A stretch of DNA of 64,000 nucleotides from an uncultured Acidimicrobiales bacterium (GTDB lineage Bacteria > Actinomycetota > Acidimicrobiia > Acidimicrobiales > CAVXTF01). The notes beneath the pieces are model-generated. The model searched no databases. It was not told where the DNA came from and was given only the letters and a program-made list of their open reading frames with translations. Positions 12,120 through 64,000 of this stretch are shown here, in pieces (within the stretch, counting starts at the first letter, position 1; each line of letters starts with the position of its first letter). The translations under genes and the position numbers were made by a program. The stretch spans positions 1,746,745 to 1,810,744 of the forward strand of contig CAVXTF010000002.1 in the NCBI GenBank assembly GCA_963764615.1. Reading direction: 5' to 3'.

Positions 12120-12127
12120 TGGGACAA

Positions 12128-12149: not shown

Positions 12150-12245
12150 TCCCGCCAGGGCGGCCTCCTCGACCGCTCAGACACCTCCCGGGCCTGCCGA
12201 GACCCCTCCGATAGCATCCGCAGGCGTGTCCGAAGGCCCGGAGGG

Positions 12246-12998
12246 GTGCCGGTGAAGACCCTTATCCTCTGTGGAGGCAAAGGAACGCGTGCGTACCCCC
12301 ACAGCCTCGAGATGCCGAAGCCGCTCATGACGGTTGGCGACGAGCCGATCCTCCGTCACCTGATGCGCATCTATGCGAGGCAGGGTTTCACCGAGTTCGT
12401 CCTCGCGGGCGGATACAGGGCCGACCTTCTGGTCACGTTCGCAGAGGGCCTTCCCCCCGACTGGAGCGCCCAGGTCATCGACACAGGGGAAGACACCGGG
12501 ACAGCCGGACGGATCGCGCGCTGCCGCGCGGCTCTCGGTGGGACCTTCTTCGCCACCTACGGGGACGGCCTCGCGTCGATCGACCTCAGGTCGCTTCTCG
12601 ACTTCCACCGGTCCCACCCGGGTTCTGTGACCGTCACTACAGTGCCGCTCCCCTCTCCTTACGGCACGCTCGTGTGGGACGAGAATGGGCGCGTCTCGTC
12701 CTTCGTAGAGAAGCCCAGCCTGCCCGATCACTGGATCAACGCGGGGTTCTTCGTAATGGACGAACGGGCCTTCGACAACTGGCAGGGAGACGACCTCGAG
12801 CGAGACGTTCTCCCGACGCTCGCCGAGGCGGGCGAGCTGTACGTGCACAGGCACGCCGGTTTCTGGCGCTCGATGGACACCTACAAAGACGCATTGGAGC
12901 TGAGTGCCCTTTGCCGGGAAGGAGAAGGCCCGTGGACGACCTCGCAGGCGTCCGAGTCCTCGTCACAGGTGCCACTGGCTTCATCGGATCGCATCTGA
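12246..12998 (+). CDS. rfbF: glucose-1-phosphate cytidylyltransferase-like nucleotidyltransferase
   Basis: 250 aa with LILCGGKGTRAYP...MPKPLM, DTGEDTGTAGRI, YGDGLASIDL, WINAGFFVM and GFWRSMDTYKD...GEGPW. This is an RfbF-like pattern along the whole length. The 3' end overlaps the next gene by 67 nt. Confidence 0.7.
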   Translation: MPVKTLILCGGKGTRAYPHSLEMPKPLMTVGDEPILRHLMRIYARQGFTEFVLAGGYRADLLVTFAEGLPPDWSAQVIDTGEDTGTAGRIARCRAALGGTFFATYGDGLASIDLRSLLDFHRSHPGSVTVTTVPLPSPYGTLVWDENGRVSSFVEKPSLPDHWINAGFFVMDERAFDNWQGDDLERDVLPTLAEAGELYVHRHAGFWRSMDTYKDALELSALCREGEGPWTTSQASESSSQVPLASSDRI

Positions 12999-13906: not shown

Positions 13907-13926
13907 GGGCGGACGAACCGGTATCC

Positions 13927-31471: not shown

Positions 31472-33468
31472 CTAGCTCTTCAGGGTCACCCTCAGCCCGA
31501 GCCTCGCCACTTCGGGGAGTATCTGTGGCCGGAGCCACTCTCCGCCTTGAACGGTCACGTGGATGCCGTCGTCGGGGTAGCGAACGTCGATGCCGTCGAT
31601 GGCCATCGCGTACCGGCCGGCCGGGTCGAGGATGCGATTCAGATCGATCAGCGTGGTCGTGGTCGGATGCTCAGCCGCAACCTGCCTGAGAAGGCTGTTC
31701 CACTCGTCTACACGCGAGGGGCGCGTTCTCCGGCCACGCGTCGCCGTCGGGCTGCTCCAAAGGTGGGTCGATGTAGGGGAAGGTGAAGATCACCACGTGC
31801 GCCCCCCCGGCCGAAAGGGTCCTCACCGCCCGGTTGAGATCGGCCAACAGATGGGCGTCCCACGCCGGCTCGCCGACATGCACCCACGTCCCGTCGTAAA
31901 GATGGTCTGCGAGCTCGAAGCGACCGATGAGCAGGCCGACGACCTGGGGACGGATCGTCGCCACCTCGGTGGCCCAGGACCTCGGCCAGTTCCCGCACTC
32001 GGGGCTCCCGTACGCGACTCCGGCGACGCGGGTCGCGAACGGATCCAGATCGCACCCGAGAATTCCGTCGTTCACCACGTCGACCCCGTAGTCCTCGATC
32101 GAGTTCCAGCTGAGCCCGACGGCGGTCGTCAACGCCACCGAATCGCCGACCATCAGGAAACGCAACGGGTCGGACGTAAAGGCGTGAGCGGAGGCGAGGG
32201 CTTCGTGCTCCGTGACCGGAACTCCTACGGAACCTCTCAACAGGCCAGCGGGAACCGACGCAAATGCCGGCGGTACCGTAGCGATGACCACCGCCGCCGC
32301 GGTTGCAAGCGCACCGCCCGCAGCGATTGGAAGTCCCCGCCAGCTGCGCGCGATGTAGCCGCGCCTTATCGGCTGCTCGACGAGATGGAACGACGCCACG
32401 GCGGTGGCGAAGGTGACGCCGAGTCGCACCGCCAGCAGCGCGGCTCCCTGCAGACCGGTGTGGGCACGATCGAGGGCTAAGAACAGCGGCCAGTGGTACA
32501 GGTAAAGACCGTAGGAGATCCGTCCTATGTACGCGAGGGGCGGAACAGAAAGGGCCCGGGCGAGCACAGAGCCGCGCCAGCTTGAAACGCTCGTGATCAC
32601 GGCCCCCGCCGCCAGGGCCACCAACAGGAACCCGCCCTCGTACAAGAACGCGTCCTGGCCGCCGACGGCGTGCCAGCACCACAACAAAGCTCCCGCACCC
32701 GAAACTCCGAGGACCCCGCCGACCGCACGCCCTCGGCCGGTATCCGCCCATCTGGCAGGAACGACCCTCCAATCGCGGCGCGATGCGAGAGCCCCGAGCA
32801 TGGATCCCACCAGCAGCGCCTGCGCTCTCGTGTCGGTCCCGTAGTACAACCGGTCGGTCGAGAATCCGTCGAGGTACATGCTCGCCATGAGCAGCGCGGA
32901 GGCCGCAGCCCCGGTTCCCGCCACCCAGGCCAGAACTCGCGACCCCCTCGATCGCAGGATCACGAAGGCCACCAACGGCCATATGACGTAGTACTGCTCT
33001 TCGACCGACAACGACCACATGTGGAGCAGCGGTGAAGGTGCGGTGGACTGCGCGAAATAACCCTGATTCGAGATGATGAAGTGCCAGTTGGCGAAGTAGA
33101 GCAAGGTCGAGATCGCATCACCGCGGATGGCGGTCACGTCGACGGAGTCCCTGTACCCCCACGCGTAGACAGCGACCGCCACAAGCAGCACCAACAAGGC
33201 CGGCAGGAGCCTGCGGGCCCTGCCCGCCCAGAATCTCCCCAGGCGGATGGAGCCCGACTCCAGGTGCTCTCCGCAAAGCAGGCTCGTGATGAGGAACCCT
33301 GAAAGCACGAAGAACACGTCGACGCCGAGTAGTCCCCCGCCTACCCCGCCAACGCCCGCGTGGTACAGGAGCACGGCGCACACCGCGAATGCCCGGATCC
33401 CGTCCAGGAACCCCAGGCGCTCCTCGCCCGCCCGGTCCCGTTCTCGTCCCGGCGCCGTTTCCGTCACT
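31472..33468 (-). pseudogene. AT3 (OafA-like) acyltransferase with C-terminal SGNH domain, one frameshift near the 3' end (or sequencing error)
   Basis: FLDGIRAFAVCAVLLYHAGV...GVDVFFVLSGFLITSLL and HMWSLSVEEQYYVIWPL are AT3 motifs. Track ORF 31671..33710 ends in ...WPENAPLACRRVEQPSQAGCG. A -1 frame read by hand continues PSRVDEWNSLLRQVAAEHPTTTTLIDLNRILDPAGRYAMAIDGIDVRYPDDGIHVT..., an SGNH block V-like sequence, to the TAG at 31472. The shift lies at the gggg run 31718-31721. A likely GTG start at 33468 is 21 nt after the coaE stop. Confidence 0.75.
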
Positions 33469-33489
33469 CGGTCGATCTCAAAAGCTATC

Positions 33490-34107
33490 TCAGGGCGCTG
33501 ACGAGGTCCGGGCCAGCAGATCCGCCCAGAGCCGGTCCACCTGCGCCTGCAGGGAATCGAGGTCCCCGCTGTTGTCGAGCACCACGTCCGCGAGAGCGCG
33601 ACGTTCCTCCCTGGTGATCTGCGCCGCCAACCGCGCCTCTGCGTCCGCGCGATCGAAGCCGCGCTGGCCGACGAGCCGCTCCACCGCCGTCTCCGTCGGC
33701 GCGTCCACAACGACCACCACGTCGAAGCCGAGCTGCTCGCGGTGCGTCTGTTTCAGAAGCGGGATGTCCATGACGACCACGGCACCTGCTTTTTCGGCCG
33801 CGGACCGCCGTTCAACCATCAACTGCCCGATCACCGGATGGGTCGCGGCGTTAAGGTCGGCGAGCGCCTGAGGGTCGTTGAAGACGATCTCCGCGAGTGC
33901 CTTGCGGTCGATGGTCCCGTCGACAGCGACCACGGCATCGCCGAACCGCTCGACCACAGGTCCGTACGCCGGGCCGCCTGGAGCGACCACTTCGCGCGCG
34001 ATCGCATCTGCGTCGACCAAGACAGCACCCTTCGACGCGAGCATGTGAGCCGCAGTCGACTTGCCGGAGCCGATACCTCCGGTGAGACCCACCGTGACTG
34101 CACTCAT
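33490..34107 (-). CDS. coaE: dephospho-CoA kinase
   Basis: 205 aa with the VGLTGGIGSGKST P-loop and overall CoaE length and layout. Confidence 0.9.
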   Translation of the reverse strand: MSAVTVGLTGGIGSGKSTAAHMLASKGAVLVDADAIAREVVAPGGPAYGPVVERFGDAVVAVDGTIDRKALAEIVFNDPQALADLNAATHPVIGQLMVERRSAAEKAGAVVVMDIPLLKQTHREQLGFDVVVVVDAPTETAVERLVGQRGFDRADAEARLAAQITREERRALADVVLDNSGDLDSLQAQVDRLWADLLARTSSAP

Positions 34108-35049: not shown

Positions 35050-38000
35050 GTGGCGCGAGAAGCGGCAGCGACCACGCCTCGAGACACGGCCGGCGCTCCG
35101 GGCCCGGCGCGCACCATCCGCACGGCGGCCGCCTCGTGGTTCGAGTACGTGACCGTCGCCCTGTTCGCGTTCGTCCCGCAGCTCGCGTCCCAACCCGGCG
35201 TGGTCGATTCCGACACGAAGTCCTATCTCTTCATCGACCCGGCGAGGTTCCTAGCCCAGTCCGCCTCGATGTGGGACCCCGACATTGCGCTCGGTACCGT
35301 CACCCACCAGCAACTCGGCTACCTGTTCCCCATGGGGCCGTTCTTCCTCGCGACTCATGGCCTCGGTATCCCGGTGTGGGTAGCGGAGCGGCTCTGGGTG
35401 GGCGCGACCCTCTTCGCCGCCGGTGCAGGAGTCATCTACCTGGCGAGGACACTCGGCATGCGGGGTCCTGGCGTGCTCGCAGCCGGAATCGCGTACATGC
35501 TCTCGCCGTACTTCTTGCAGTACGTGGGCAGGATCTCGGTGATCCTCCTGTCCTGGGCGGCGCTGCCCTGGCTCGTGGCTCTGGTGGCGCGTGCGATGCG
35601 TCAGGGGGGATGGCGGTACCCGGCCCTGTTCGCCCTCGTCGCGCTCACAGCGGGCGGCGTCAACGCGAGCTCGCTCATATACGTCGGCGTGGGCCCGTTG
35701 CTTTGGCTGCCCTACTCGGTGCTCGTGAGCCGCGAGCAGACCTGGCGCAGGGCATGGGCCGTGCTCTGGCGCACCGGGTTGTTGACGCTCGCGGTTTCGC
35801 TGTGGTGGATCGTCGGCCTCGAGATCGAAGGGGGATACGGGCTCGACATCCTCAAGTACACAGAGACGGTCCAGGCCGTGAGCCAGACCTCTTACGCGTC
35901 GGAAGTGCTTCGCGGACTCGGCTACTGGTACTTCTACGGCTCGGACCGTATAGGCCAGTGGGTCGCGACCTCGACCCAGTTCACCCAGGAGATCTGGCTG
36001 ATCGCTACCAGCTTCGCGGTTCCGGTCGCAGCATTTGTCTCGGCCGTAGTCGTTCGCTGGCGCTACCGGGCGTACTTCGTGCTGCTTGTGGTCGTCGGGC
36101 TCGTCCTGTCGGTAGGCGCGAACCCGTTCGGAAACCCGTCACCTCTGGGAGCCCTCCTCAAATGGCTGATGACGGATACGACGGCCGGCCTCGCCATGCG
36201 CTCGACGGACAGGGCGTCGCCTCTTCTTCTGCTCGGGACCTCCATGCTGCTCGGTGCGGGGGTGAGCGCGCTCGCTAGAAGCGTCAGGCTCGCCGGGCTC
36301 GCGTCGTGTGCAGCAGCGATCGGCCTCGTGTGCGCTGCCAACCCGGCGGTGTTCAACGGGGCCACCGTGGCCGACAATTTCACGCAGCCCTCACCACTAC
36401 CTACCTTCCTCACCGACGCCACGAGCGCCCTGAACGCGCAACCCGGGGGCTCGGGGCCGGCCGCCACGAGAGTGCTCGCGATACCCGGCCAGAACTTCGC
36501 TGCGTACCGATTCGGCGACACGATCGACACGGTCTATCCAGCACTGCTCACCCGACCGTTCGCACAACGCGAACAACAGGAGTACGGGTCGCTTGCAACC
36601 CAGGACGTCCTATACGCGCTCGACGATCCGATACAAGAGGGTTATTTCGTGTCGAGCGGGCTCGCGCCGATGGCGAGCCTGATGAGCGCGGGGTCCCTTC
36701 TCGTCCAGAACGACCTCGCCTACGAGCGATACAACCAGCCGACCCCACTCCAGGTCGAGCAGGACCTCACACCGACCCCGCCGGGGCTCGGGAGCCCCAC
36801 CGGATACGGACCTCCCCAGCCGAACCAGTCGCTCATCGCCGAGATCGACGAGGTCACCGAAGCCGAATCGCCCGACCAGTCCTGGCCGTCGCCGCTCGAG
36901 GTGTACCCGGTGGAGGATCCTCGCCAGATCGTGCGCGCCGAGACTCAATCCGCCCCGCTCATCGTCGACGGAGACGCGGAAGGCATCTCGGCGGCCGCCG
37001 ACGTCGGGCTCCTCGCCGGCAATCCGACAATTCTTTACGCGACTACTTTGGACAGCCGGCCCGGCGCGATCCAACAGACTGCTGCGAGCGGCGCGACGCT
37101 CGTGCTCACCGACACCGATCGCAAGCGCGAGTTCCGCTGGAACTCAGTGGCGCAGAACGCCGGCTACACGGAAACCGCCGCACAAGGACCGTCATCGGAC
37201 CCCACGGCGGAGCCGATCGACAGCTTCTTGCCGCAGACTCCGGATTCGCAGAGCGTCACCGTCTTCGGGGGGATCAAGTCCGTTGAAGCGTCCGACTACG
37301 GAAACGATGTGCAGAATCTGCCCGAGGACCGTGCAGCAATGGCCCTGGACGCGAACACCCAGACCTCGTGGCAGACGTCGGCGTTCTCCAACCCGGTCGG
37401 ACAATGGTGGCAGGTGGCCCTCGACCACCCGACCACTACCGATCACATCAACCTTCTGCAGGTCATAACCGGTTCGCTCACCCGCTGGATCACGAGCGCG
37501 ACCCTCACCTTCGACGGCAAAAAGACGATTCATGTGTCCTTGGGGCCGTCATCGCGCTCGCTGTCGGGCAAGGGCCAGACCGTGACCTTCCCTACGACCA
37601 CCTTCCAGACGCTTCGCATCACCATCGACGGCACAAACCTCAACCAGGCGGGGAATACCGCAAGCCTGCCCGGAGTCGGGTTCGCAGAGGTGAGGATCCC
37701 GGGCGTGACCATGCAGGAATACGTGTCGTTGCCCGAGGACATGCTCCGCACGCTCGGAAGCTCGTCGATCGACAACCGCCTCGTCATGATCCTCACGCGC
37801 CTGCGGGTCGCCCCCGAGCCGCCCAGAACCGATCCGGAGACGAGCATGTCGCGGATATTCTGGCTGCCGACAACGCGCAACTTCACGCTGACGGGTGAGG
37901 CATCGATCGACGCTCTCATCCCCGACGACGCGATCGACCGCCTCGTCGGGAGGCAGGGATCGAACGGCACAGGCATCGTGGCGTACTCGTCGGGCCGCCT

Positions 38001-39684
38001 GCCCGGCGACCTTCACGACGGGGCGGAAGCTGCGCTCGACGGCAATCCGGCCACGATGTGGTCGACGGGGTTCGGAGCGAACGCTCTAGTCGACCCGTGG
38101 ATCGAGGTGAACCTGCCGAGCCCCGTGACGGTCAGCCATCTCGACCTGCAGGTTGTCGCGGACGGCCATCACTCGGTGCCGGCGAGCGTGCGGGTCACGG
38201 CGTGCGACACGTTGCCTGTCAGCTCGTACTGCGCTGCAGACGCCTCCAACTCGGTCGAGCTCCGACTACCGCCCATCTCCGACGGAAAGCGACAGGGCGA
38301 CACGGTGACCTTGCCGCTGAATTTCCGTCCGCTCACCGGTCGTTTCCTCACATTCACGTTCACGAGCGTGAGAACCGAGACGTCGGTCAACTACTACTCG
38401 GAGTCACCTCTCGCGATGCCGATAGGAGTCGCCGAGCTCGGGATACCCGGAGTGGACGAACCGGCTCCGCCAGCAAGCATCCCGGCGGTGTGCACCGACA
38501 AGCTGCTCACCATCGACTCCAAGCCGGTCTGGGTGGAGATCAGCGGAAAGAGCGCTGCCGCTCTCGACGGCGACGAGCTCCCGCTCTCCCTCTGTGGGCC
38601 TGACGCCCGAGGGCTCGAGCTCGGCCCAGGGGCGCACACGGTCGTGGCCACTTACGGGCACGCGAACGGCCCGCATTCGACAGGGTGGGATCTCGACCAG
38701 CTCACGTTCGACTCGGCGCCTGGAGGAGGTGCGGAGCCCGACGCCGCAGGCGGGCCTGTCGTCGCGCCCCACATCGCAGGTGGAACGCCCACTGTGAAAG
38801 TGATCTCATCCACCGCGACGACATGGAAGCTCCAAGTCTCCGGCGCGACAGGGCCTTTCTGGTTGGTGCTCGGCGAGACCCAGAACCGCGGCTGGCAGGC
38901 GTCGGTCGACGGCGGCCCGTCGCTCGGCGGGTCGACACTGATCGACGGCTTCGCGAACGGGTGGAAGGTGGACCCCGGGGACCTTGGTGCTGCCGCAAAA
39001 GGCGCGAAGTTCGACGTGACCCTGGACTGGACGCCGCAGGACCGCGTCTGGGAAGCGCTCTTCATCTCGGGCGCGGCCGCTGTCGTCTGCGTCGTGCTCG
39101 TCGCGCTCCCGCGCCGAAGGCGCCGCCGGACCGGTTGGGAAGTCTGGCGATCGCGTCAAGGTCATGTTCCAGTTGAGCGCGACGCCAACGGCGCGACAGC
39201 GGCCACGACCGTCGGTCAGGCGGACGTCGGGCCCGTCCTCGGCTCCCCGGCGACGTTCCCCCGGTCGCAACGTCCACCTCTGTGGATAGCGGGCCTTGCC
39301 GCCGTGGGGGCCGGCCTCGTGGCTTCGGCCCTGTCGACTCCTTGGTCTCCCTGGGCCGGTCTGGTGATCGGCCCTGCGGTCGGGCTCGTGGTGCTCGTGC
39401 GCCGGACGAGGCTGCTCCTCACCCTGTCTGCGGTCGGGCTGGTGATCGCCGCCGCCATCTACGTGGTCCTCGGTCAGGCTCAGCACCACTACCTGGTCGG
39501 GGCGACATGGCCGGGAGAATTCGAGCCCGCAGCGATCATGACGTCGCTCGGGGTCCTGTTGCTCGGAGCCGACGCCCTCGCTGAACGCGTCCGCACCGCG
39601 CGACCGGTCAGCGAACCCGGTGGCGTCTCCGGGCCTCGTCGACGAGGGCGCCGAGGGTCCCACTCGCAGTCGCCCCCCAGGTGA
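35050..39684 (+). CDS. AftD-like (alpha-(1->3)-arabinofuranosyltransferase family / DUF3367) giant GT-C membrane glycosyltransferase with discoidin-like modules
   Basis: 1544 aa. QPGVVDSDTKSYLFIDPARFL...QQLGYLFPMGPFF matches the AftD N-terminal signature as I recall it. Multiple TM helices follow. F5/8-type-C-like signatures occur (AMALDANTQTSWQT, AALDGNPATMWST), and there are C-terminal TM helices. Confidence 0.8.
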   Translation: MAREAAATTPRDTAGAPGPARTIRTAAASWFEYVTVALFAFVPQLASQPGVVDSDTKSYLFIDPARFLAQSASMWDPDIALGTVTHQQLGYLFPMGPFFLATHGLGIPVWVAERLWVGATLFAAGAGVIYLARTLGMRGPGVLAAGIAYMLSPYFLQYVGRISVILLSWAALPWLVALVARAMRQGGWRYPALFALVALTAGGVNASSLIYVGVGPLLWLPYSVLVSREQTWRRAWAVLWRTGLLTLAVSLWWIVGLEIEGGYGLDILKYTETVQAVSQTSYASEVLRGLGYWYFYGSDRIGQWVATSTQFTQEIWLIATSFAVPVAAFVSAVVVRWRYRAYFVLLVVVGLVLSVGANPFGNPSPLGALLKWLMTDTTAGLAMRSTDRASPLLLLGTSMLLGAGVSALARSVRLAGLASCAAAIGLVCAANPAVFNGATVADNFTQPSPLPTFLTDATSALNAQPGGSGPAATRVLAIPGQNFAAYRFGDTIDTVYPALLTRPFAQREQQEYGSLATQDVLYALDDPIQEGYFVSSGLAPMASLMSAGSLLVQNDLAYERYNQPTPLQVEQDLTPTPPGLGSPTGYGPPQPNQSLIAEIDEVTEAESPDQSWPSPLEVYPVEDPRQIVRAETQSAPLIVDGDAEGISAAADVGLLAGNPTILYATTLDSRPGAIQQTAASGATLVLTDTDRKREFRWNSVAQNAGYTETAAQGPSSDPTAEPIDSFLPQTPDSQSVTVFGGIKSVEASDYGNDVQNLPEDRAAMALDANTQTSWQTSAFSNPVGQWWQVALDHPTTTDHINLLQVITGSLTRWITSATLTFDGKKTIHVSLGPSSRSLSGKGQTVTFPTTTFQTLRITIDGTNLNQAGNTASLPGVGFAEVRIPGVTMQEYVSLPEDMLRTLGSSSIDNRLVMILTRLRVAPEPPRTDPETSMSRIFWLPTTRNFTLTGEASIDALIPDDAIDRLVGRQGSNGTGIVAYSSGRLPGDLHDGAEAALDGNPATMWSTGFGANALVDPWIEVNLPSPVTVSHLDLQVVADGHHSVPASVRVTACDTLPVSSYCAADASNSVELRLPPISDGKRQGDTVTLPLNFRPLTGRFLTFTFTSVRTETSVNYYSESPLAMPIGVAELGIPGVDEPAPPASIPAVCTDKLLTIDSKPVWVEISGKSAAALDGDELPLSLCGPDARGLELGPGAHTVVATYGHANGPHSTGWDLDQLTFDSAPGGGAEPDAAGGPVVAPHIAGGTPTVKVISSTATTWKLQVSGATGPFWLVLGETQNRGWQASVDGGPSLGGSTLIDGFANGWKVDPGDLGAAAKGAKFDVTLDWTPQDRVWEALFISGAAAVVCVVLVALPRRRRRRTGWEVWRSRQGHVPVERDANGATAATTVGQADVGPVLGSPATFPRSQRPPLWIAGLAAVGAGLVASALSTPWSPWAGLVIGPAVGLVVLVRRTRLLLTLSAVGLVIAAAIYVVLGQAQHHYLVGATWPGEFEPAAIMTSLGVLLLGADALAERVRTARPVSEPGGVSGPRRRGRRGSHSQSPPR

Positions 39685-40864
39685 ACTTGCCGGCGTGACG
39701 GATCGCGCCCTTGGCGAGCTCACCGAGGCGCACCGGGTCCGCGATGAGCTCCGAAACCGCCCCCGCCAGGGCGGCGGGATCGTCGACCAACACGCCACTC
39801 ACACCGTGGTCGACCGCATCTTCGTGCCCTGCTATCCGGGTCGCGACCGCCGGTGTGCCGCATGCGCCCGCCTCGGTGATCGTCATCCCCCATCCCTCGC
39901 GCAACGAGGAGCTGACGAGGACCCAGGCGCGCCTGTAGACGTCGACCAGATCGTCGTCGGAGAGCTTGCCCGGCATGTCGATCCAGTGGTCGGCGCCAAG
40001 CTCGTGGCGGCGGGCCTCGAGGCGCGCCCGCTCGTAGCCCTCGCCCACGATGACGGCTCTCAACGCGGGATGATCGATACGGACCTTTGCGAGCGCGTCA
40101 ATGAGTGCGTCGAATCGCTTCACTGGCACGAGCCTTCCCACTGCTACCACCAGCGGGGATGACGAGCGTTCGCCGCTCGGGGTGAAGCGCGGCTCGACGC
40201 CGGGCGGCACGACGCTCACGCGTTCGGGCCGCATCTTCAGCATCGACACGATCTCGGCGCGAGACGACTCGGAGAGCGTCACCAGGCTCGTGCGCCTGTA
40301 CAAAGGCGGCGCGAGCGTCTGCTCGACGAACCTGCCGGCCCTGGCGAGGTTGGGAGGAAGGGTCATCTGCCACATCTCGGCGTGGACGTGGTGGAGGAAC
40401 ACGACCCTCGGGCCCGTTGCCCAGAGCGGAGAGAAGAAAGGCATGCCGTTCCAGATCTCGACCCATCCGTCGTTGCGCCCGTGCCTGCGAAAGGCGCCAC
40501 TGAGCGCGCTCCTTGCGAAGACGGCGTACCTGCCTGACTTGCGGACCACCCTGTACCCGTCGCGCTCGGTGAACATCGGTTGGCCCTCTGCCCTCGATGC
40601 ACGCATGGTGACGTCGAGACCCGCGGCCGCCCAAAGAGATGCGATGCGATGGGCATGGAGCTCCGAGCCCCCGGCTTCGGGATCGTCGAGATCGCGCCAC
40701 GCGAGAATGTGAACACTGCCCATGCCGAGGCGGCCGGCCTCGTCGACCAGCTCGCCGAGCGGCCGGCGATCGTTGCGGTCCCCGGCGGCGGTCGATGACA
40801 CCCGTGCAGCGCTCCTGTGGCCCACGTCGGCCCGTGCGGCCGCCCTAGTGCTCTGTTGCCTCAC
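39608..40864 (-). CDS. GT4 (GT-B fold) glycosyltransferase
   Basis: GGSELHAHRIA near the N-terminus and EGWGMTITEAGACGTPAVATRIAGHEDAV (EX7E region). The ATG at 40723 (MGSVHILAWRDL) is a plausible true start. Confidence 0.8.
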   Translation of the reverse strand: MRQQSTRAAARADVGHRSAARVSSTAAGDRNDRRPLGELVDEAGRLGMGSVHILAWRDLDDPEAGGSELHAHRIASLWAAAGLDVTMRASRAEGQPMFTERDGYRVVRKSGRYAVFARSALSGAFRRHGRNDGWVEIWNGMPFFSPLWATGPRVVFLHHVHAEMWQMTLPPNLARAGRFVEQTLAPPLYRRTSLVTLSESSRAEIVSMLKMRPERVSVVPPGVEPRFTPSGERSSSPLVVAVGRLVPVKRFDALIDALAKVRIDHPALRAVIVGEGYERARLEARRHELGADHWIDMPGKLSDDDLVDVYRRAWVLVSSSLREGWGMTITEAGACGTPAVATRIAGHEDAVDHGVSGVLVDDPAALAGAVSELIADPVRLGELAKGAIRHAGKFTWGATASGTLGALVDEARRRHRVR

Positions 40865-44078: not shown

Positions 44079-45221
44079 CTACGGCACGTACAGCCCGGTG
44101 AAGGCGAGGAGCGAGTAACAAGCGAGCCCAGCAGCTGCAAGCACGAGGACCGCGGTCTCAGCGCGTGGTGAGCGGTCGAGCGAGGCGCCAGCGATCACGA
44201 GCGGGAACGCCGAAAGGGCATAGCGCTCGAACGAATCCAGGTTCGAAGCGGTCAGGGCCACCGCAAGGACGAGGAAAGCGAACCCCGCGTAGGACGCGGG
44301 CAGCCTCACCGCTGCGACGACAGCGAGGAGCACGGCGAGGATCACCCACGGAAGGTGGAACGCGGTGCCGAGATGACTTCCGTGGACCAGGAGGCTCGCG
44401 TCGTGACCGAGCGTTGAGAACGGGTCGGCGAGTGCTCCCCTGTGCCCTGCCTCCTCTTGGATGCGAAGCGGGGCGAACGCGTCGCCGTAGCGCCATCCGC
44501 ACCATGCAAGGAACGCGCCGCAACCGAGCGGTCCTCCGATCACGGACACGAGAGCCGCGGTGCGGCTCGACCGGGTCGAGCGCGCCGACATGGTCGACCG
44601 AGCAGGATGGGTATGGCTCCAGGCTCTCGCGCACTCGATCGCGGCAGGAACCACCAGGAGCGCGCCGAGCGGCCGCGCCAGGCCCGCGAGAACCGACAGT
44701 GCGGCTGCCGCCCACCAACGGCGGCGGCGCATGCACAAGAACGCGCCGACACAGAGCATCACGAACGTCGACTCGGCGTAGCCCATGATGAAGACGAAAG
44801 CCGGAGGGGCCAGGCAGAGCAGCCATGCCGCCCGGCGCGCGAACTGCGCGTCGCCGGTCTCGCGTCTCACGAGGCTCGCGAGCAGCGCGGCTGCTGCCAG
44901 GGCACAGAGGTTGGAGACGACCACGAGTGCAACCCCGACCGATACCCCCGGCACCTCGGCCAGGGCGCGGGCGACTGCCGGGACCAAAGGAAAGAAGCGA
45001 AGAGAGGCGGGGCCGGCGCCCGCGTAACCGTGCTTGGCGATCGCTTCGTACCAGCCGGCGTCCCAACCGAGCAGACCCTGGCGGACCCTCGATGCGGACT
45101 GAGCGGACAGGCGGCCGTCACTCGTGAGCTCGCGGGCGACAGCAAGCGATGCGAGCACCACTGCCCGCGCCAACAGCCAAGGCGGGGCCGCGGTCCGCAC
45201 GGCCCAGCGCGCCCCGAGCAT
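44079..45221 (-). CDS. PIG-V-like mannosyltransferase family membrane protein (GT-C candidate)
   Basis: 380 aa, polytopic. GWDAGWYEAIAKHGYAGAGPASLRFFPLVPAVARAL matches the WDxxxYxxIAxxGY...FFPLxP signature of the Mannosyl_trans2 family. Confidence 0.55.
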   Translation of the reverse strand: MLGARWAVRTAAPPWLLARAVVLASLAVARELTSDGRLSAQSASRVRQGLLGWDAGWYEAIAKHGYAGAGPASLRFFPLVPAVARALAEVPGVSVGVALVVVSNLCALAAAALLASLVRRETGDAQFARRAAWLLCLAPPAFVFIMGYAESTFVMLCVGAFLCMRRRRWWAAAALSVLAGLARPLGALLVVPAAIECARAWSHTHPARSTMSARSTRSSRTAALVSVIGGPLGCGAFLAWCGWRYGDAFAPLRIQEEAGHRGALADPFSTLGHDASLLVHGSHLGTAFHLPWVILAVLLAVVAAVRLPASYAGFAFLVLAVALTASNLDSFERYALSAFPLVIAGASLDRSPRAETAVLVLAAAGLACYSLLAFTGLYVP

Positions 45222-48634: not shown

Positions 48635-49686
48635 TGGCCGGCAGCGGGACGGCCCACCTGCGCGGCAGCGACACGCTGCTACGGGTCGAGAACCTGGTTG
48701 TGGAATTCGGCCACGGGCGCCGGCGCGTCCATGCCGTGTCCGACGTGAGCTTCGACGTGGCCGCCGGCGAGACCCTCGGGCTCGTGGGCGAGTCCGGGTG
48801 CGGCAAGTCGACGACCGGCCGTGCCGTGGCGATGGTGCACCCACCCACCTCCGGGGCGATCCGTCTCGACGGCACGGACCTTACGACGCTCAACCAAGGC
48901 GAGCTCAGGCGCAGGCGCACGAAGGTCCAGCTCATCTTCCAGGACCCGATCTCCTCGCTCAACCCCAGGCGCAAGATCCGCGACGTGGTCGCAGAGCCGC
49001 TCAGCATCTGGGGCTTAGGCACCCGTGCCGAGCGAAGGCAGAAGGCCGCCGCCATGCTCGAGGCCGTGGGCATCGACCCGGAAGCGGCGGCCGACCGGCA
49101 TTCGGTCGAGTTCTCAGGTGGGCAGTGCCAACGGGTGAGCATCGCTCGCGCGCTCATGCTCGAGCCCGAACTGCTCGTGTGCGACGAACCGGTCTCGGCT
49201 CTCGACGTGTCCGTGCAAGCTCAGATCCTCAACCTGCTCGAGGACCTGAAGGTCCGTATGGGCCTGACGATGATCTTCATCGCCCACGACCTTGCAGTCG
49301 TGAAGCACGTGAGCGACCGGGTAGCGGTCATGTACCTGGGAAAGCTCTGCGAGCTCGCACCTCCCGACGTCCTGTATCACCGGCCGGCGCACCCCTACAC
49401 GGAGGCGTTGCTCGCCTCGATCCCAGAACCTGATCCCACAGTCGGCGCCCACAAGGTGCCCAAACGCCTCGCAGGCGACCTTCCCTCGCCGATCGACCCC
49501 CCGTCCGGCTGCAGGTTCCGCACGCGTTGCCCGTACGCGCAGCCACGCTGCGCCGAGGAAGAGCCCCAGATAAGAGAGCTCACCCCCGGGCAGTTCGTGG
49601 CGTGTCACTTCCCGATCGGAGTACCGAGCACCTCTTCAGCAGGACCTGCAGCCTCGGAGGACCGTAGTGCCGTCGGCTCGACCTAA
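48634..49686 (+). CDS. ABC transporter ATP-binding protein (OppF-like)
   Basis: GESGCGKST, FSGGQCQRVSIARAL, LLVCDEPVSALD and CRFRTRCPYAQPRC motifs. TGATG start/stop overlap with the previous gene. Confidence 0.9.
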   Translation: MAGSGTAHLRGSDTLLRVENLVVEFGHGRRRVHAVSDVSFDVAAGETLGLVGESGCGKSTTGRAVAMVHPPTSGAIRLDGTDLTTLNQGELRRRRTKVQLIFQDPISSLNPRRKIRDVVAEPLSIWGLGTRAERRQKAAAMLEAVGIDPEAAADRHSVEFSGGQCQRVSIARALMLEPELLVCDEPVSALDVSVQAQILNLLEDLKVRMGLTMIFIAHDLAVVKHVSDRVAVMYLGKLCELAPPDVLYHRPAHPYTEALLASIPEPDPTVGAHKVPKRLAGDLPSPIDPPSGCRFRTRCPYAQPRCAEEEPQIRELTPGQFVACHFPIGVPSTSSAGPAASEDRSAVGST

Positions 49687-51134
49687 TTCGACCCGGTAGT
49701 GGCGTACACCGAAGACTGAGAAGTCCCTCCGGGTCGACGTCGCCCGAGCCTCTTTTTCCACCGCGACGCCATGGCTTCACCAGCCGCCACGATCCCGGCG
49801 CTTGCGAGCACGACCAGCGCCACCTCGAACTCCGCCCGGAAGCGCACCTGCCCATAGCCCGTCGCTGCGATCACGGTCACCGCCACAGCCACGACGAGCA
49901 ACGGCCAGACCTTCACCGACCGCCTCCTCAACACGACGACGCCGGCCACCGCGAACGGCAGGAGCAGGTAATAGGAAAGCAGGCCGCCGAGTGAGGCGGG
50001 GATCGGCCGTCCCTCGTTCACGTCGGTGTCCACCATCTGCAGGGGCTCGTACAGGTCCCAGACCCTGCCCACCCGCGCCGCCGCGACGACCGGCAGCCTG
50101 CTCGCGTGGTGCTCCAGATAGTGAAGGCCGGCGTCGAACTGCCTTGCGGACTCGACCGACTGCTCCTGAGCGGGAGGGACGTCGATTGAGCAAGGGAGAC
50201 TCCAGCTGCCGAGTCCCGGTCCGTAGTACGTCTGTGGGCAGTTGGCCCCGAGGAGCACCGGCCCCTCCCCGGTCGAGAGGAAAGTCGGATCGCGAAAGGA
50301 GTCCAAATTTCGACCCACCCAGGGAGAGACGACAAGGAGCGCTGCCAGGAGACTCACGGCTGTTAGGACGAGCCGTCGACCCCATGGGATCCCCCTCAGG
50401 CCCAGCGCCGCCGGCACGAGGAGAAGAGGCAGGAGCAAGATGAGTTCGGCCCGGGTGAGGATCTCGAGCCCGCATCCGATGCCGAGGAGAACGCCATTGG
50501 CGATCCCCGGCGAGTCCATGAAGCGGTACGCGGCGAGGAGGATCAAGACCATGAGCAGCATGCTGACCGTCTCGGACATGACGATCCCGTTCGGGATCCA
50601 CATGTTGGGGTACAGCGCTGCGACTACCGCTGCGACGATTCCTACACGGGTTCCTGCCAGCCGGCGTCCGAGCAAGCCCACGCACAGCACGACCGCCGAC
50701 CCCAAGACAGCCATCGTCAGGCGCTGCGGAGTCTCACCCGGTGGCAGGCCGAACAAGTAGGTGGCGGGTGTGAGCACGAACGCGGTCATCGGCGGATGCG
50801 CAGCATCGGGGCCGTGTCCGAAGATCACCGGAAAGAAATGGCCAGAAGCGAGAGTGAGGGCCTGCAGCTCGTAGTACGCGGAGTCGTAGAGCTTGTAGGG
50901 CTCGTTGCGCGTCACCACGAGCACGTAAAGCACGCGAAACACGAGCGCGCCCCCTGTGACCACCCCGAGCCACAGGCCGAACCGGGAGTGTGCCTGACGC
51001 CGGATGTCGGAGGCCCCGCGTGGAGGGTCGGTCTGCGCTTCGAGCAGCAACGGCGAGCCTGGCACAGGCGCAATCATTGTCGTTCGGTCGATCCAGCCGT
51101 TGGTCCGAGCGTCTTGGGCCGGATTTGCTTGCAT
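49683..51134 (-). CDS. ArnT/PMT-like (GT39/GT83-type) polytopic membrane glycosyltransferase candidate
   Basis: 483 aa with more than 10 TM segments. The first-loop region VTRNEPYKLYDSAYYELQALTLASGHFF resembles the phospholipid-carrier-dependent glycosyltransferase layout. Confidence 0.5.
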   Translation of the reverse strand: MQANPAQDARTNGWIDRTTMIAPVPGSPLLLEAQTDPPRGASDIRRQAHSRFGLWLGVVTGGALVFRVLYVLVVTRNEPYKLYDSAYYELQALTLASGHFFPVIFGHGPDAAHPPMTAFVLTPATYLFGLPPGETPQRLTMAVLGSAVVLCVGLLGRRLAGTRVGIVAAVVAALYPNMWIPNGIVMSETVSMLLMVLILLAAYRFMDSPGIANGVLLGIGCGLEILTRAELILLLPLLLVPAALGLRGIPWGRRLVLTAVSLLAALLVVSPWVGRNLDSFRDPTFLSTGEGPVLLGANCPQTYYGPGLGSWSLPCSIDVPPAQEQSVESARQFDAGLHYLEHHASRLPVVAAARVGRVWDLYEPLQMVDTDVNEGRPIPASLGGLLSYYLLLPFAVAGVVVLRRRSVKVWPLLVVAVAVTVIAATGYGQVRFRAEFEVALVVLASAGIVAAGEAMASRWKKRLGRRRPGGTSQSSVYATTGSN

Positions 51135-51223
51135 ATGCGCGATAAAAGCGGCAGTTTGACGTCAAGCACACCGGTCGACCGCCCCCGGGGCCGACGAGGA
51201 TTCCGACCAAGGAGCCACACGCA

Positions 51224-53896
51224 GTGCGAACCACGCCTTTGCGACCCGGCGGCGGGGCCCGCCGCTCGCGCCGCGTCGCCTGGCTCGTTGCGTCGAGCGC
51301 AGCGGCCACCCTGGTCGTCGGGACGTTCGACATGGCAGCCGACGCACCGGCAGCTGCCGCATGGGCTGCCCGCTCATCTCCTTCAGCCAGGGAGTTCGTG
51401 GTCGACACCACGGCGGACTCGCACGACGCCCATCCCGGGGACGGGTCATGCGCAGACACGTCGGGAAAGTGCTCGCTCCGAAGCGCCGTCGAGGAAGCCG
51501 ACGCTCTCGGGGCGCCGGTCACCGTGATCGTGCCTGCGGGGACTTACCGCCTGTCATTAGGAGCCCTAGTGGCTACCGACCCGGCAGGCATCGACATCGT
51601 GGGCGCAGGGACGGCCCTGACGACGATCACTGCCGGTGGGTCGTCACGTGATGTCACCGTCAAGGAGGCCGGGTCCGGCAAGGACCCTTTCGGCGGTGCT
51701 GTCGCAACGCTGTCGGGAGTCACGATCACCGGAGGCACTGCGCATGCCGGCGGGGACATCGACGTGATGGACGCGAACGACACGCTCATGCTCGAGCAGG
51801 CCTCGGTGTCGGGAGGGCGAGCGGCCGACGGCGGGGGGATAGCGACGTCCGGCCAGATAGGGATCTCGGGATCCTCGGTGAGCGGCAACTCCGCGACCGA
51901 CGATGGGGGAGGCATTGCGGCATCGGACGCCTCGGTTCGCGTCGCGGACTCGACGCTCGACGGCGACTCCGCGCAGTTCGGCGGAGCGATGTTCCTTCAG
52001 GACTGCGTGACGTCGCTCGGATCTACGACGCTCGGCTCGAACACGGCTTCGTCCTCCATGGCCGACAGCTCGGGCGGGGCGATATACGACTCAGGTCCAA
52101 TGGACATCGTCTCCGACCAGTTCTCCTCGGACGCGGCCGAGGGCCTGAAGACTGAGAGCTCCTTCGGCGGTGCCATCTACGAGTCCAAAGGCGGTGTGAC
52201 CGTGACCGGCACCACATTCTCGGACGACCGGTCCACCGTCTCGTCCGACGGTGACGCTTCGGGCGGAGCCGTCTTCGCAGGTGGTCCCCTCACGGTGAGC
52301 GGATCGTCATTCCGTGACGATGCGACCGCGGGAGAAGGATCCGACCTCGGTGGCGCGATCTACGACAACTCGTTCGCCTCCATCAGCGGATCGTCGTTCG
52401 ACTCCGACCGGGCCGACGGAACGGCTGCTTCGACCTTCGGTGGAGCTGTCTACGACGCGGGAGCTGGTGCCGACATAGCCAACACCACATTCGACGGAAA
52501 TGTCGCTGTGAACGGCAACGGCGGCGCCATCGCCTCATCGGGCGGCGGGGAGTTGCTCTCCGGCGACACCTTCTCGAGGAACGAGGCGACGGGCGGCGCC
52601 AACGGCGAAGGAGGCGCGTTGTGGGCCGAATCCGCGTTCACCTCACAGGGCTCCACATTCGTGCTGAACCACGCGCAGGTTCTAGGAGGGGCCATCTGGG
52701 AGGACGACTCCTCCTCGCTCGAGGGCACGACCGTCGAGCAGAACTCCGCAAACCAGGGGGGAGGGGTCTACGTCTTCTGGGTGCTCCAGGCGACGGACTC
52801 GGCTTTCTTGGACAACGCGGCGACTGGGCCCGAAAGCACCGGCGGGGCCATCATGATCTCGGGAACGCACGGTGGCCCGAAGGTGCACCACGTCGACCTG
52901 CAATACGTGACGATCGCGGGAAACACCGCCGACATCGGGGCCGGTATAGCGGACCAGGCGGGCAAGGCAGATGCGGTGGGCGGAACGATCGGCGATTCGG
53001 TCATCGCCGGGAACCTCACCCCCTCCGGGCACGAGCAGGACTGCAGTATCGGCGGTGGACCCCGCGCCGCACTCCCGTGGAGCTCGGCCGGGGGAAACGT
53101 GGCGGGTGACACGACCTGCCGTCTGGATCAGGCGACCGACCGCGAGGGGGAGAGTGAGCAGGGCTACGCGGAGTCCGGCGCTGACGGCGGGGTGTTCAAC
53201 TTCGGTACCGAGTACCTGGGGTCGATGGGCGACAGGCACCTGAACTCCCCTGTCGTCGGCGCTGCGATGAGACCCGGCAACCAGGGCTATTGGGAGGTCG
53301 CATCCGACGGAGGCGTGTTCAGCTTCGGCGACGCGCAGTACTTCGGCTCCATGGGAGGCAGGCACCTGAATGAACCGATCGTCGCGATGACCGCGACGCC
53401 CGACGGCATGGGCTACTGGCTGGTCGCCTCCGACGGCGGCGTTTTCAGCTTCGGCGACGCACGGTACTTCGGCTCCATGGGAGGCAGGCACTTGAACGCA
53501 CCGATCGTCGCCATGGCCCGCACGCCCGACGGGCGGGGCTACTGGCTCGTCGCCTCCGACGGAGGCGTGTTCAGCTTCGGCGACGCCGACTTCTTCGGGT
53601 CGACGGGTGGCGTGCAGTTGAACGGGCCCGTGGTCGCACTTGACCCCGCGCCCGACGGCGTCGGGTACACCCTTTTCGCGTCCGATGGCGGGGAATTCAA
53701 TTTCGGGACGACCTACGAGGCGAACAGGTTCGTTCCGTCGTCGCCGATCGTCTCCGCTGCCGCGACCCCAGACGGGCTCGGATACTGGGAGATGGCGGCC
53801 GACGGCTCGGTGTACGCACTCGGCGACGCTGCGTTCGACGGGCCGTCCAGGGCTCTTCGCCTTCGGGCACTCGTGGTTTCAGGGTTCGCGACCTGA
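51224..53896 (+). CDS. secreted right-handed beta-helix (PMP/GGAI-repeat) protein with C-terminal six-fold 40-aa repeat module
   Basis: RBS aaggag. Arg-rich signal-like N-terminus. GKCSLRSAVEEADALGAPVTVIVPAGTYRL motif. Many GGAI/GGAV/GGAM-containing degenerate repeats. Six GYWLVASDGGVFSFGDAxYFGS repeats at the C-terminus. Confidence 0.7.
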   Translation: MRTTPLRPGGGARRSRRVAWLVASSAAATLVVGTFDMAADAPAAAAWAARSSPSAREFVVDTTADSHDAHPGDGSCADTSGKCSLRSAVEEADALGAPVTVIVPAGTYRLSLGALVATDPAGIDIVGAGTALTTITAGGSSRDVTVKEAGSGKDPFGGAVATLSGVTITGGTAHAGGDIDVMDANDTLMLEQASVSGGRAADGGGIATSGQIGISGSSVSGNSATDDGGGIAASDASVRVADSTLDGDSAQFGGAMFLQDCVTSLGSTTLGSNTASSSMADSSGGAIYDSGPMDIVSDQFSSDAAEGLKTESSFGGAIYESKGGVTVTGTTFSDDRSTVSSDGDASGGAVFAGGPLTVSGSSFRDDATAGEGSDLGGAIYDNSFASISGSSFDSDRADGTAASTFGGAVYDAGAGADIANTTFDGNVAVNGNGGAIASSGGGELLSGDTFSRNEATGGANGEGGALWAESAFTSQGSTFVLNHAQVLGGAIWEDDSSSLEGTTVEQNSANQGGGVYVFWVLQATDSAFLDNAATGPESTGGAIMISGTHGGPKVHHVDLQYVTIAGNTADIGAGIADQAGKADAVGGTIGDSVIAGNLTPSGHEQDCSIGGGPRAALPWSSAGGNVAGDTTCRLDQATDREGESEQGYAESGADGGVFNFGTEYLGSMGDRHLNSPVVGAAMRPGNQGYWEVASDGGVFSFGDAQYFGSMGGRHLNEPIVAMTATPDGMGYWLVASDGGVFSFGDARYFGSMGGRHLNAPIVAMARTPDGRGYWLVASDGGVFSFGDADFFGSTGGVQLNGPVVALDPAPDGVGYTLFASDGGEFNFGTTYEANRFVPSSPIVSAAATPDGLGYWEMAADGSVYALGDAAFDGPSRALRLRALVVSGFAT
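53162..53893 (+). repeat. six tandem ~120-126-nt coding repeats (GYWLVASDGGVFSFGDAxYFGSMGGRHLNxPIVAMxxTPDG)
   Basis: Repeat starts fall at about 53162, 53285, 53411, 53537, 53663 and 53780. Repeats 2-4 are nearly identical at the protein level. Confidence 0.85.
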
Positions 53897-62298: not shown

Positions 62299-64000
62299 GT
62301 GAACGGGGAAGATGTGCAGTCCCCCGGAATGACTTTGACGGGCCATTACCTGCCCGGTCTCGACGGTCTTCGCGCGCTCGCGATCACTGGCGTGATCGCA
62401 TACCACCTCGGGTACGGCTGGGCCTCCGGCGGTTACCTGGGTGTCGACCTTTTCTTCGTGCTGTCGGGCTTTCTGATCACGACCCTGCTCATGGAGGAAT
62501 GGTTGGGGACCGGCGCGGTCAGGCTTACCAAGTTCTGGGGAAGGCGCGCACGCAGGCTGCTGCCGGCGCTGCTCCTCATGGTGGTCGTGGTAGTGGCGTT
62601 CGTGGCGACCCAGAGCGGCGGACTTCCGATTGACTGGTCAGGGCTGCGGAGCCAGGCACTGGCGACGGTCGGCTATGTAGCGAATTGGCAGCTCCTCCTC
62701 GCGCACCAGTCGTATTTCGACCAGTTCGCGGTCCAATCGCCGCTCAAGCACACCTGGTCGCTCGCGATCGAGGAGCAGTTCTACCTGGTGTGGCCCCTCG
62801 TGATCGTGGGGATGATGGGCCTGCTGCGCAGGGTGCGCCGTCCCGGACGTTGGCGCAGCGCCGGGCTCGCCCTCACCGTCGGCGGCGGAATCGCCTCGGC
62901 GGCCTGGATGGCCGTTCTGTGGCTGCACGGCGCTTCGGTCGACAGGGTGTACTACGGCACCGACACCCGGGCGTTCGACCTGTTTGCCGGCGCGGCGCTC
63001 GCCATGATGACCGTCGGCCGACCTCAGCCAACTCCGCGCTCCATGCGCCGGCTGCACGCCTTCGGACTCGTGGCCGTCGGCACGCTCGCGGCTTGCTGGA
63101 TCACCGGAGGATCGCCGGTCACCGATGTCCCGCGCGGATGGATGTTCGAAGGGGGGTTCGCCCTGTGCGCCATCGCCGGGGCCGTCGTCATCGCCGACGT
63201 CCGCTGCAAGGAGCCGGGGCCGCTGCACTCGGTGCTCTCGTTGCGACCCGTGCGCTACGTCGGGAAGATCTCCTACGGGCTCTACTTGTGGCACTGGCCG
63301 GTCATAGTCGAGCTCACCCCCGCAAGAGCACATGCGAACGGCCTGACGTTGTCCACGCTGCGAGTGGCCGTGACCTTCGGGCTCGCCGTCACGAGCTACT
63401 ACCTCGTGGAGCAGCCCATCCGGCAAGGGTGGCCCCGCATACGCCTAACCTGGCCGCGAATTGCGATGGCTCCCGCCGCGATGGCAGCCACGGCGGTGGT
63501 GATACTGGTCGGGACCGTCCCGCCGGCGGTTGCGACGGCGCCGGTGGGGCAAGTGGTGCGGACGACGGTCTCGGTCCCGGGCGCCGGGGGTGTCGTCGGC
63601 CGGCCGATCGTCCTAGGGCGCGCCGTATCCGAGCGCCGACCGCTTCGGATCCTTCTTGTCGGGGACTCGGTGATGCTCACCGAGGCGCCCGCGATCGAGG
63701 CCCTGTTCGACTCGACGCACGAAGCCGTCGTCACTGACGAGTCCCAGTGGGGCTACGGGCTGACCAGGCTGCCCGACTGGGCGACCAAACTGACCGAGTG
63801 GCTCGCAACCGACCGTCCCGACCTGGTGGTCGCCATGTGGAGCTGGGACAACGTCGCATACGCCACCGATCCGGCGGCCTACCGCTCCCAGATGGACCGG
63901 TTCGTGCGGATCGCGCTCAATCCGACCGACGGCGCCAAGGGCATCGTCTTCCAGCAGTTCCCCGCACCGGGACCTGATGCGGCCCTCACTACGGGCTCTC
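62299..64000 (+). CDS. AT3 (OafA-like) acyltransferase with C-terminal SGNH-like domain, partial (runs off window end)
   Basis: Not on the ORF track because there is no stop in the window. Read by hand from the GTG at 62299 (alternatives: GTG 62314, ATG 62329): LPGLDGLRALAITGVIAYHLG...GVDLFFVLSGFLITTLL...HTWSLAIEEQFYLVWPL...ISYGLYLWHWPV...LRILLVGDSVM. It is a paralog of 31472..33468. Confidence 0.8.
   Translation, partial: MNGEDVQSPGMTLTGHYLPGLDGLRALAITGVIAYHLGYGWASGGYLGVDLFFVLSGFLITTLLMEEWLGTGAVRLTKFWGRRARRLLPALLLMVVVVVAFVATQSGGLPIDWSGLRSQALATVGYVANWQLLLAHQSYFDQFAVQSPLKHTWSLAIEEQFYLVWPLVIVGMMGLLRRVRRPGRWRSAGLALTVGGGIASAAWMAVLWLHGASVDRVYYGTDTRAFDLFAGAALAMMTVGRPQPTPRSMRRLHAFGLVAVGTLAACWITGGSPVTDVPRGWMFEGGFALCAIAGAVVIADVRCKEPGPLHSVLSLRPVRYVGKISYGLYLWHWPVIVELTPARAHANGLTLSTLRVAVTFGLAVTSYYLVEQPIRQGWPRIRLTWPRIAMAPAAMAATAVVILVGTVPPAVATAPVGQVVRTTVSVPGAGGVVGRPIVLGRAVSERRPLRILLVGDSVMLTEAPAIEALFDSTHEAVVTDESQWGYGLTRLPDWATKLTEWLATDRPDLVVAMWSWDNVAYATDPAAYRSQMDRFVRIALNPTDGAKGIVFQQFPAPGPDAALTTGS

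Follow-up and report, generated by a model that had tools for sequence, protein, structure and literature searches.

Wall-binding modules such as SH3b, LysM, CW_7, PG_binding_1, SLH, CWB2 and the choline-binding repeats are the described systems that come closest, in placement, to the element considered here: an array of six repeats, called the GYW module after the first residues of its consensus, which forms the C-terminal part of the 890-residue product of a gene at positions 51224..53896 on the plus strand of a 64,000-nucleotide window (the whole stretch of DNA that was analysed) from an uncultured Acidimicrobiales bacterium. Like those modules, the GYW module is shuffled, tends to sit at the C-terminus of secreted enzymes and wall hydrolases and, in phages, has its blades placed after an Amidase_2 or endolysin catalytic domain; unlike them, it is a predicted beta-propeller, has no sequence similarity to any of them and has a distribution centred on the Acidimicrobiia. 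Two groups of propellers offer a comparison at the level of the fold. One comprises RCC1 (PF00415), RCC1_2 (PF13540) and BLIP-II, the latter built from blades of three strands and about 42 residues; the other comprises lectins of the RSL, BambL and AAL type, in which a six-blade ring is made either from one chain or from oligomers of shorter chains. For the rest of the protein, the closest described systems are the CSLREA, choice-of-anchor Q and chlamydial Pmp-type proteins, with which it shares a CSLR..A cap, coils of the GGA(I/V) and FxxN type and a C...DQ..DR.G cap.

Almost nothing is known about how proteins are retained at the surface of Acidimicrobiia, a major actinobacterial class of soil, freshwater and marine environments. 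The gene product, which carries a putative signal peptide, a CSLREA cap, a beta-helix of the polymorphic membrane protein (PMP) type and a predicted six-bladed propeller, is, from its sequence, most likely a secreted cell-surface protein of a soil Acidimicrobiales bacterium. The reading we favour, and regard as fairly probable, is that it is displayed on the surface through non-covalent binding of its propeller to a component of the wall. In such a mechanism, the signal peptide would export the protein, leaving a mature form composed of a passenger helix and a propeller; the passenger would consist of the CSLREA cap, about 14 PMP-type GGA(I/V)/FxxN coils and a Cys-bridged end cap; and the C-terminal six-bladed propeller would bind peptidoglycan or a lineage-specific wall glycan non-covalently and, once wall-bound, would hold the beta-helix on the cell surface. 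The propeller would then be a shuffled anchoring module of the Acidimicrobiia and their phages, in a role like that played elsewhere by SLH, LysM, SH3b and the choline-binding repeats.

Repeat array and predicted fold

The module covers residues 647-890 (53162..53893, plus strand; 244 amino acids) and is divided, on the same strand, into blades 1-3 at 53162-53284, 53285-53410 and 53411-53536 and blades 4-6 at 53537-53662, 53663-53779 and 53780-53893. The repeats start at residues 647, 688, 730, 772, 814 and 853; their number and their length of 38-42 residues each are as the first-pass annotation, made from the letters of this DNA and its open reading frames (ORFs), had described them for the last 244 residues. 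Their consensus of 42 residues reads GYW..DGG(V/I)F.FGDA.F.GS..G..LN.P(I/V)VGMA.TPDG, in which D8, G9-G10, F12, G21-S22 and N29 are invariant. A hidden Markov model (HMM) scores the individual repeats at 46-88 bits, values that are circular for this protein, the model having been built from the same six repeats; the repeat is independently supported by the tandem period of 126 base pairs (bp) detected by Tandem Repeats Finder, with ~80% DNA identity, and by its matches in other proteins. Repeats 2-4 are canonical and repeats 1, 5 and 6 degenerate, a pattern common to the close orthologues P0267 and P0269; no further copies of the repeat were found within the window.

The same annotation could attach no family name to the repeat, and our searches across Pfam, NCBIfam, PHROGs, the PDB and the literature likewise yielded none. 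No Pfam or NCBIfam model matches the repeat in this protein, nor in 36 family members at lax thresholds; the scattered, sub-threshold matches of these 36 modules to Ribosomal_L24e, DUF5818 and SH3_YKFC_2nd were set aside as noise from the Gly/aromatic motif. Sequence searches of the PDB with the module, with a 36-sequence profile and with a single-repeat profile of 43 blades returned no significant match, and a full-text literature search with the repeat motifs found no occurrence. Literature searches on propeller wall-binding domains in Acidimicrobiia, and on endolysin, propeller and RCC1 in combination, likewise found no relevant paper.

Run from the single sequence, AlphaFold2 gave a poor model, with a mean predicted local distance difference test (pLDDT) score of 57.4, and this model was replaced by one computed with a 36-sequence alignment of the module, which reaches a pLDDT of 92.7 and a predicted template-modelling (pTM) score of 0.90 and contains 18 strands, three per repeat. 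The strands of each repeat are of the PIVGMA, GYWLVA and GGVFSF types, and the conserved segment FGDA.F.GS.GG..LN makes a long loop between blades. The last strand, LVVSGF (model residues 245-250), is of the type that precedes the GYW strand in the other repeats; judged by this strand order, it probably acts as a Velcro closure that completes blade 1. A Foldseek search of the PDB gave 1376 matches at E<=1e-3, the top 50 of which are almost all WD40-type or designed propellers, and the top matches in BFVD are likewise all propellers. In the PDB, query-normalised template-modelling scores lie between 0.50 and 0.68, mostly for seven-bladed WD40 and designed propellers, and it follows that the module has no close solved relative. 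The confidence of the model and the exclusive matching of propellers together point to a beta-propeller fold. A closed unit of six is independently supported by the copy numbers, since these are quantised: among 266 relatives, exactly 6 repeats occur in 209 proteins, 12 in 11 and 18 in one, and 67 of 80 loci in GTDB species representatives have 6. The six-bladed propeller first proposed from the number and length of the repeats is consistent with all three lines of evidence, that is, the AlphaFold2 model, the propellers retrieved by Foldseek and the counts in multiples of six.

The fold and the motif also bear on a different function, in which the propeller would be a protein-binding domain of the RCC1/BLIP-II type docking on an envelope protein, such as a penicillin-binding or S-layer protein. 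The pattern of a hydrophobic strand, DG-x-V-F/Y-x-F/W-G (that is, DG-x-V-aromatic-x-aromatic-G) and a Gly-rich loop resembles that of RCC1 repeats, and the modelled blades, short, three-stranded and ~42 residues long, have the dimensions of those of BLIP-II. RCC1_2 also finds matches in 5 of the 36 family members, with a best E of 7e-6, and the best PDB profile matches are the RCC1-like domains of HERC2 (E 0.038) and RPGR, in a set of RCC1-like matches spanning E 0.038-4.7. All of these scores, however, fall below threshold: in the protein itself, PF13540 reaches 16.9 bits (E 0.0059) and its gathering score is 22. BLIP-II was neither retrieved by sequence nor present among the top 50 Foldseek matches, the blades of the module number six, not seven, and the tails of phage endolysins, where the blades are also found, normally bind wall polymers. 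We consider docking on an envelope protein improbable; the GYW module is probably an undescribed family of a known fold, with a likely place among the known wall-binding modules.

Carriers, anchor position and phages

In an HMMER search of 1.84 billion cluster representatives (50% identity level), the repeat was found in 19,276 protein clusters at E<=1e-3 and in 9,227 at E<=1e-30. The named carriers are nearly all from Acidimicrobiia; the best 80 loci in species-representative genomes come nearly all from metagenome-assembled genomes (MAGs) of Acidimicrobiales or Acidimicrobiia, with Acidithrix ferrooxidans PY-F3 and Acidiferrimicrobium sp. IK as cultured carriers. A contig binned as 'Thermoplasmata archaeon' (L062) encodes, at 2243-5764, a protein of 1173 residues with 12 GYW repeats, forming two modules with a PKD-like segment between them; its presence there may be due to contamination at the binning step or to horizontal gene transfer into an archaeon.

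Several features of the carriers speak for a wall anchor. Of 203 six-repeat proteins, 168 carry the module at the C-terminus; an N-terminus resembling a signal peptide is present in 179 of 266 carriers, as judged by a crude hydropathy test in which five cytoplasmic proteins of the window were negative; and the peptidoglycan or wall-enzyme partners of the module include CHAP, SpoIID, Amidase_2, Amidase_3, Amidase_6 and the Rv2525c-like domain. The wall-anchor reading is favoured by this combination of a C-terminal position, putatively secreted carriers and peptidoglycan-enzyme partners, and also by the conservation of the helix-plus-propeller architecture, which is kept in orthologues with 38-82% whole-length identity to the protein of the window. 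A further argument is provided by the beta-helix proteins themselves. Of 118 beta-helix relatives, 25 have the choice-of-anchor Q motif as their end, 17 run on into the propeller and 10 finish with a tail that is hydrophobic and basic; autotransporter barrels, sorting domains of the type IX secretion system (T9SS), dockerins or DUF11 are present in others. In the Acidimicrobiales homologue P0284, the first propeller blade begins 3 residues after the Q domain. Judged by domain order, in Acidimicrobiia the propeller takes the anchor position of beta-helix proteins, and a non-covalent mode of wall anchoring is favoured because the propeller holds the slot that is filled by other anchors in beta-helix relatives.

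The repeat is also encoded by 38 IMG/VR loci. Most viral carriers are 220-380 residues long, with the last 2 or 3 blades placed after a catalytic domain of ~150-260 residues, and a few have 6 blades; blade counts in viral contigs are 2, 3 or 6, all divisors of six, except in two long proteins. These proteins, encoded by the IMG/VR contigs L092 (2858-5926) and L093 (2540-5674), have ~1030 residues, with 9-11 detectable GYW blades in the middle of the protein (residues 263-763); they have no match to PHROG families at E<=1e-5 and might be tail or fibre proteins that each contain two propellers. A Pfam scan of 10 viral carriers found Amidase_2 above the gathering score in 6 and more weakly in one, and PHROG endolysin families match the N-terminal part only in L105, L084, L085, L103 and L091; in all, 12 of the 17 short (<520 residues) viral proteins scanned combine an Amidase_2 or PHROG endolysin N-terminus with 2, 3 or 6 C-terminal blades. 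The placement by which wall-binding domains of endolysins are recognised, C-terminal to the lytic domain of a phage lysin, is thus found in the repeat family and not in the protein of the window. The carrier gene of L105 is flanked by a ParB-methyltransferase gene and a collagen-like tail-fibre gene. That phage blades sit after an endolysin domain, in the standard place of a wall-binding domain, argues for the same function of the module in cells.

In the INPHARED phage set a single, weak match was found, in the complete phage MK557849, whose 1304-residue protein (L001, 1639-5553) contains two diverged six-repeat arrays at residues 455-703 and 1005-1230 and adjoins a minor tail protein. The label 'glycoside hydrolase family 25' of this protein finds no support in Pfam at 1e-5, and its PHROG tail-protein match is weak. 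Instead of a GH25 lysin, the protein may be a tail protein that binds a receptor.

The list of partners raises the question as to whether the propeller recognises something other than the wall of the cell that makes it. Besides the wall enzymes, the module is combined with PQQ-type propellers, sedolisin plus TIG, PKD, GH43, GH99, NPCBM, cadherin-like and prenyltransferase-like domains, and many of these degradative or extracellular partners (GH43, GH99, NPCBM, sedolisin plus TIG, PQQ-type propellers) are unlinked to the own wall; six-bladed propeller lectins, moreover, are an established kind, as exemplified by RSL, BambL and AAL. Such partners would fit a propeller that acts as a lectin or binds carbohydrates outside the cell, for instance soil polysaccharides of plant, fungal or microbial origin, and that brings the attached enzyme or helix to its substrate instead of to the wall of the producer. 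Yet phage endolysins, which act on the host wall from the inside, carry 2-6 blades at the wall-binding position, the cell's own wall hydrolases (CHAP, SpoIID, amidases) bear the module too, and it has no sequence match to any lectin family; RSL, BambL and AAL in particular give no Pfam or PDB sequence match to the module and are absent from the top 50 Foldseek matches in the PDB. We therefore rate a lectin for external polysaccharides as unlikely, and retain anchoring to the own wall as the preferred reading. The resemblance to these lectins may instead lie in assembly: phage GYW proteins with 2 or 3 blades, divisors of six, suggest by analogy that such pieces form trimers or dimers, respectively, as RSL and BambL do.

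Several points weigh against a wall anchor as proposed for the product of this gene. The support for wall binding is comparative, literature searches having found neither a characterised member nor a binding experiment; partners such as the PQQ-type propellers, sedolisins, GH43 and GH99 do not act on the own wall, and seen from these the module could equally be a lectin. IMG/VR contigs can include mis-called cellular DNA, and phage neighbours were checked at one locus, L105. At the level of structure, the blade count and ring closure are deduced from the number of repeats together with the pTM and the pattern of strands, and blades 1, 5 and 6 of this protein have lost parts of the consensus, which could make binding weaker or different. 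As to expression and export, the gene was not found in any RNA run searched, and the signal peptide call is heuristic.

A broader reading, which we hold only tentatively and as a whole, is that the GYW propeller is a general non-covalent surface anchor of the class Acidimicrobiia that reads a lineage-specific wall glycan. Under it, the glycan would possibly be made by GT-C enzymes like an AftD-type transferase encoded 12 kb upstream of the gene; phages would have captured 2- or 3-blade pieces, which would rebuild the six-bladed ring as trimers or dimers on endolysins and tail proteins; and the 'choice-of-anchor' beta-helix families would have this propeller as their anchor in Acidimicrobiia. 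The stakes of the anchor question are set by the size of the family, as the module occurs in about 19,000 protein clusters, yet lacks a Pfam, NCBIfam or PHROGs model and a related solved structure. If it is a wall anchor, cell-wall-binding domains would gain a new fold class, thousands of proteins now called 'hypothetical' could be annotated as surface proteins, and a conserved epitope of the wall would be indicated; the module would also provide a handle for predicting the hosts of Acidimicrobiia phages and a tag with which these poorly cultured bacteria could be labelled or used for surface display. The gene studied here would likely encode a surface-displayed beta-helix adhesin.

Predicted signal peptide and beta-helix passenger

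The predicted signal peptide occupies residues 1-49 (51224..51370, plus strand), with a basic n-region (RRSRR), a hydrophobic core at residues 19-34 and a cleavage-type motif A-W-A; hydropathy peaks at 2.09 in a stretch beginning at residue 21, and the N-terminus can be aligned with those of P0267, P0272 and P0273. Cleavage is assumed from the motif. Export through the twin-arginine translocation (Tat) pathway was considered in view of the N-terminal motif SRRVAWL; a twin arginine is present in P0267 and absent from P0272, from P0273 and from the short N-terminus of P0275. From these sequences, either the Sec or the Tat route would be compatible with the protein.

The signal peptide is followed by a CSLREA-type N-terminal cap at residues 58-92 (51395..51499, plus strand), with Cys76 and Cys83. 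With 21.8 bits, the match to the NCBIfam model TIGR04214 (CSLREA_Nterm) falls just short of the cutoff of 25, and the motif reads CSLRSA; C83, R86 and A88 are invariant across six orthologues, and the orthologue P0267 carries the JGI name CSLREA domain-containing. The segment GKCSLRSAVEEA is located at residues 81-92 and TYRL at residues 107-110. The right-handed beta-helix region spans residues 157-545 (51692..52858, plus strand) and displays 14 GG[AG][ILVMF] motifs, at residues 157-540 and 25-31 residues apart, which alternate with 10 FxxN/D motifs as in PMP-type coils. Pfam Chlam_PMP (PF02415) matches with 22.5 bits (E 1.1e-4), above its gathering score of 20.6.

The helix is closed by a C-terminal cap at residues 600-646 (53021..53161, plus strand) with Cys607 and Cys632, both invariant across six orthologues, a conservation that fits an extracellular disulfide. 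The cap contains 'C-RLDQATDREG', which corresponds to a shortened choice-of-anchor Q motif, cut at the point where the propeller begins; the model for choice-of-anchor Q, NF041518 (a domain of 58 residues, cutoff 25 bits), has no match in the protein at E<=1. In both respects, the score just under the CSLREA cutoff and the missing Q match, the protein differs from typical CSLREA and choice-of-anchor Q proteins. In homologues these models do match: NF041518 scores 65.8 bits at the corresponding place in P0284, and 82.8 bits in P0318; for P0284, an Acidimicrobiales protein of equal length and architecture, the CSLREA score is 36.1 bits, and matches above the cutoffs of both NCBIfam models extend to homologues of as little as 35% identity. 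A search with residues 50-640 retrieved 1063 relatives, many of which carry PF02415 or PF13229; their names include CSLREA domain-containing, choice-of-anchor Q, parallel beta-helix repeat and 'predicted outer membrane repeat'.

The earlier assignment of a PMP-like right-handed parallel beta-helix to the N-terminal two-thirds agrees with both the Chlam_PMP score and the names of the homologues, and the overall description of the ORF as a beta-helix followed by six repeats proved accurate when checked by sequence, motif and repeat. A literature search found no paper testing the function of CSLREA or choice-of-anchor Q proteins. The beta-helix passenger most likely serves as an adhesin or as a surface that binds glycans.

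Gene, orthologues and neighbourhood

The ORF at 51224-53896 (plus strand) starts with GTG, and direct reading of the sequence places a ribosome-binding site, AAGGAG, at 51210..51215 on the same strand, 8 nucleotides before this start. The protein has a match of 100% identity in an Acidimicrobiales MAG (P0048), and the DNA sequencing runs that contain the gene are soil metagenomes. In one orthologue, P0268 (704 residues; L002, 8001-10700), frame shifts truncate the ORF and the six repeats run on in other frames; polA on the same contig is likewise split. Since the repeats continue and polA is affected too, these frame shifts suggest a long-read assembly with indel errors and not a pseudogene.

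Upstream, a GT-C gene with a PMT_2 domain (49683..51134, minus strand; Pfam PMT_2, 46.8 bits) diverges from the gene at a distance of 89 bp. This arrangement had led the first-pass annotation to propose a functional pairing, in which the protein would be the glycosylated substrate of the GT-C enzyme or its partner in glycan processing. The two genes do share the 89-bp divergent intergenic region, and genes for envelope glycans, encoding an AftD-like GT-C, a GT4, a PIG-V-like GT-C and acyltransferases, are plentiful in the wider window. The comparison of loci goes the other way. Four orthologous loci (L002, L003, L122 and L123) keep the order Opp-ABC, target orthologue, short-chain dehydrogenase/reductase (SDR) gene and rpsA, with polA kept in three, and in none of the four is there a GT-C gene between those genes; a tblastn search with the GT-C protein against 123 fetched loci found no homologue. 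The enzyme reaches 23.7 bits with the NCBIfam Pmt model, the cutoff of which is 800, and by this score is not a Pmt orthologue; the putative substrate, for its part, has no Pro/Thr-rich linker of the kind modified by actinobacterial Pmt. The pairing does not survive this comparison, and we regard it as very improbable. The stop of the GT-C gene overlaps that of the Opp ATPase gene by 4 bp, and the GC content shows no anomaly. Set against the four syntenic loci, the PMT_2 GT-C gene, which lies between the Opp ATPase gene and the helix/propeller gene, looks to have been inserted or lost in a lineage-specific manner.

The envelope-glycan genes of the window encode, respectively, an AftD-like GT-C arabinofuranosyltransferase (35050-39684, plus strand), a GT4 (39608-40864, minus strand), a PIG-V-like GT-C mannosyltransferase (44079-45221, minus strand) and two Acyl_transf_3 proteins (31671-33710, minus strand, and 62299-63999, plus strand). 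The AftD-like protein, of 1544 residues, contains F5/8-type-C and CBM_AftD domains and scores 291 bits. That Acidimicrobiales encode an AftD-type enzyme is a hint that the wall contains a polymer resembling arabinan; speculatively, this polymer would be a candidate ligand for the propeller.

On the other side of the gene, the orthologous locus L003 contains, at 10468-15140, an island of five genes directly after the helix/propeller gene that is absent from the window; it encodes a sulfotransferase, two methyltransferases, a GT4 and a 2-oxoglutarate (2OG)-Fe(II) oxygenase. The site downstream of the helix/propeller gene seems to be a variable spot for glycan-modification genes.

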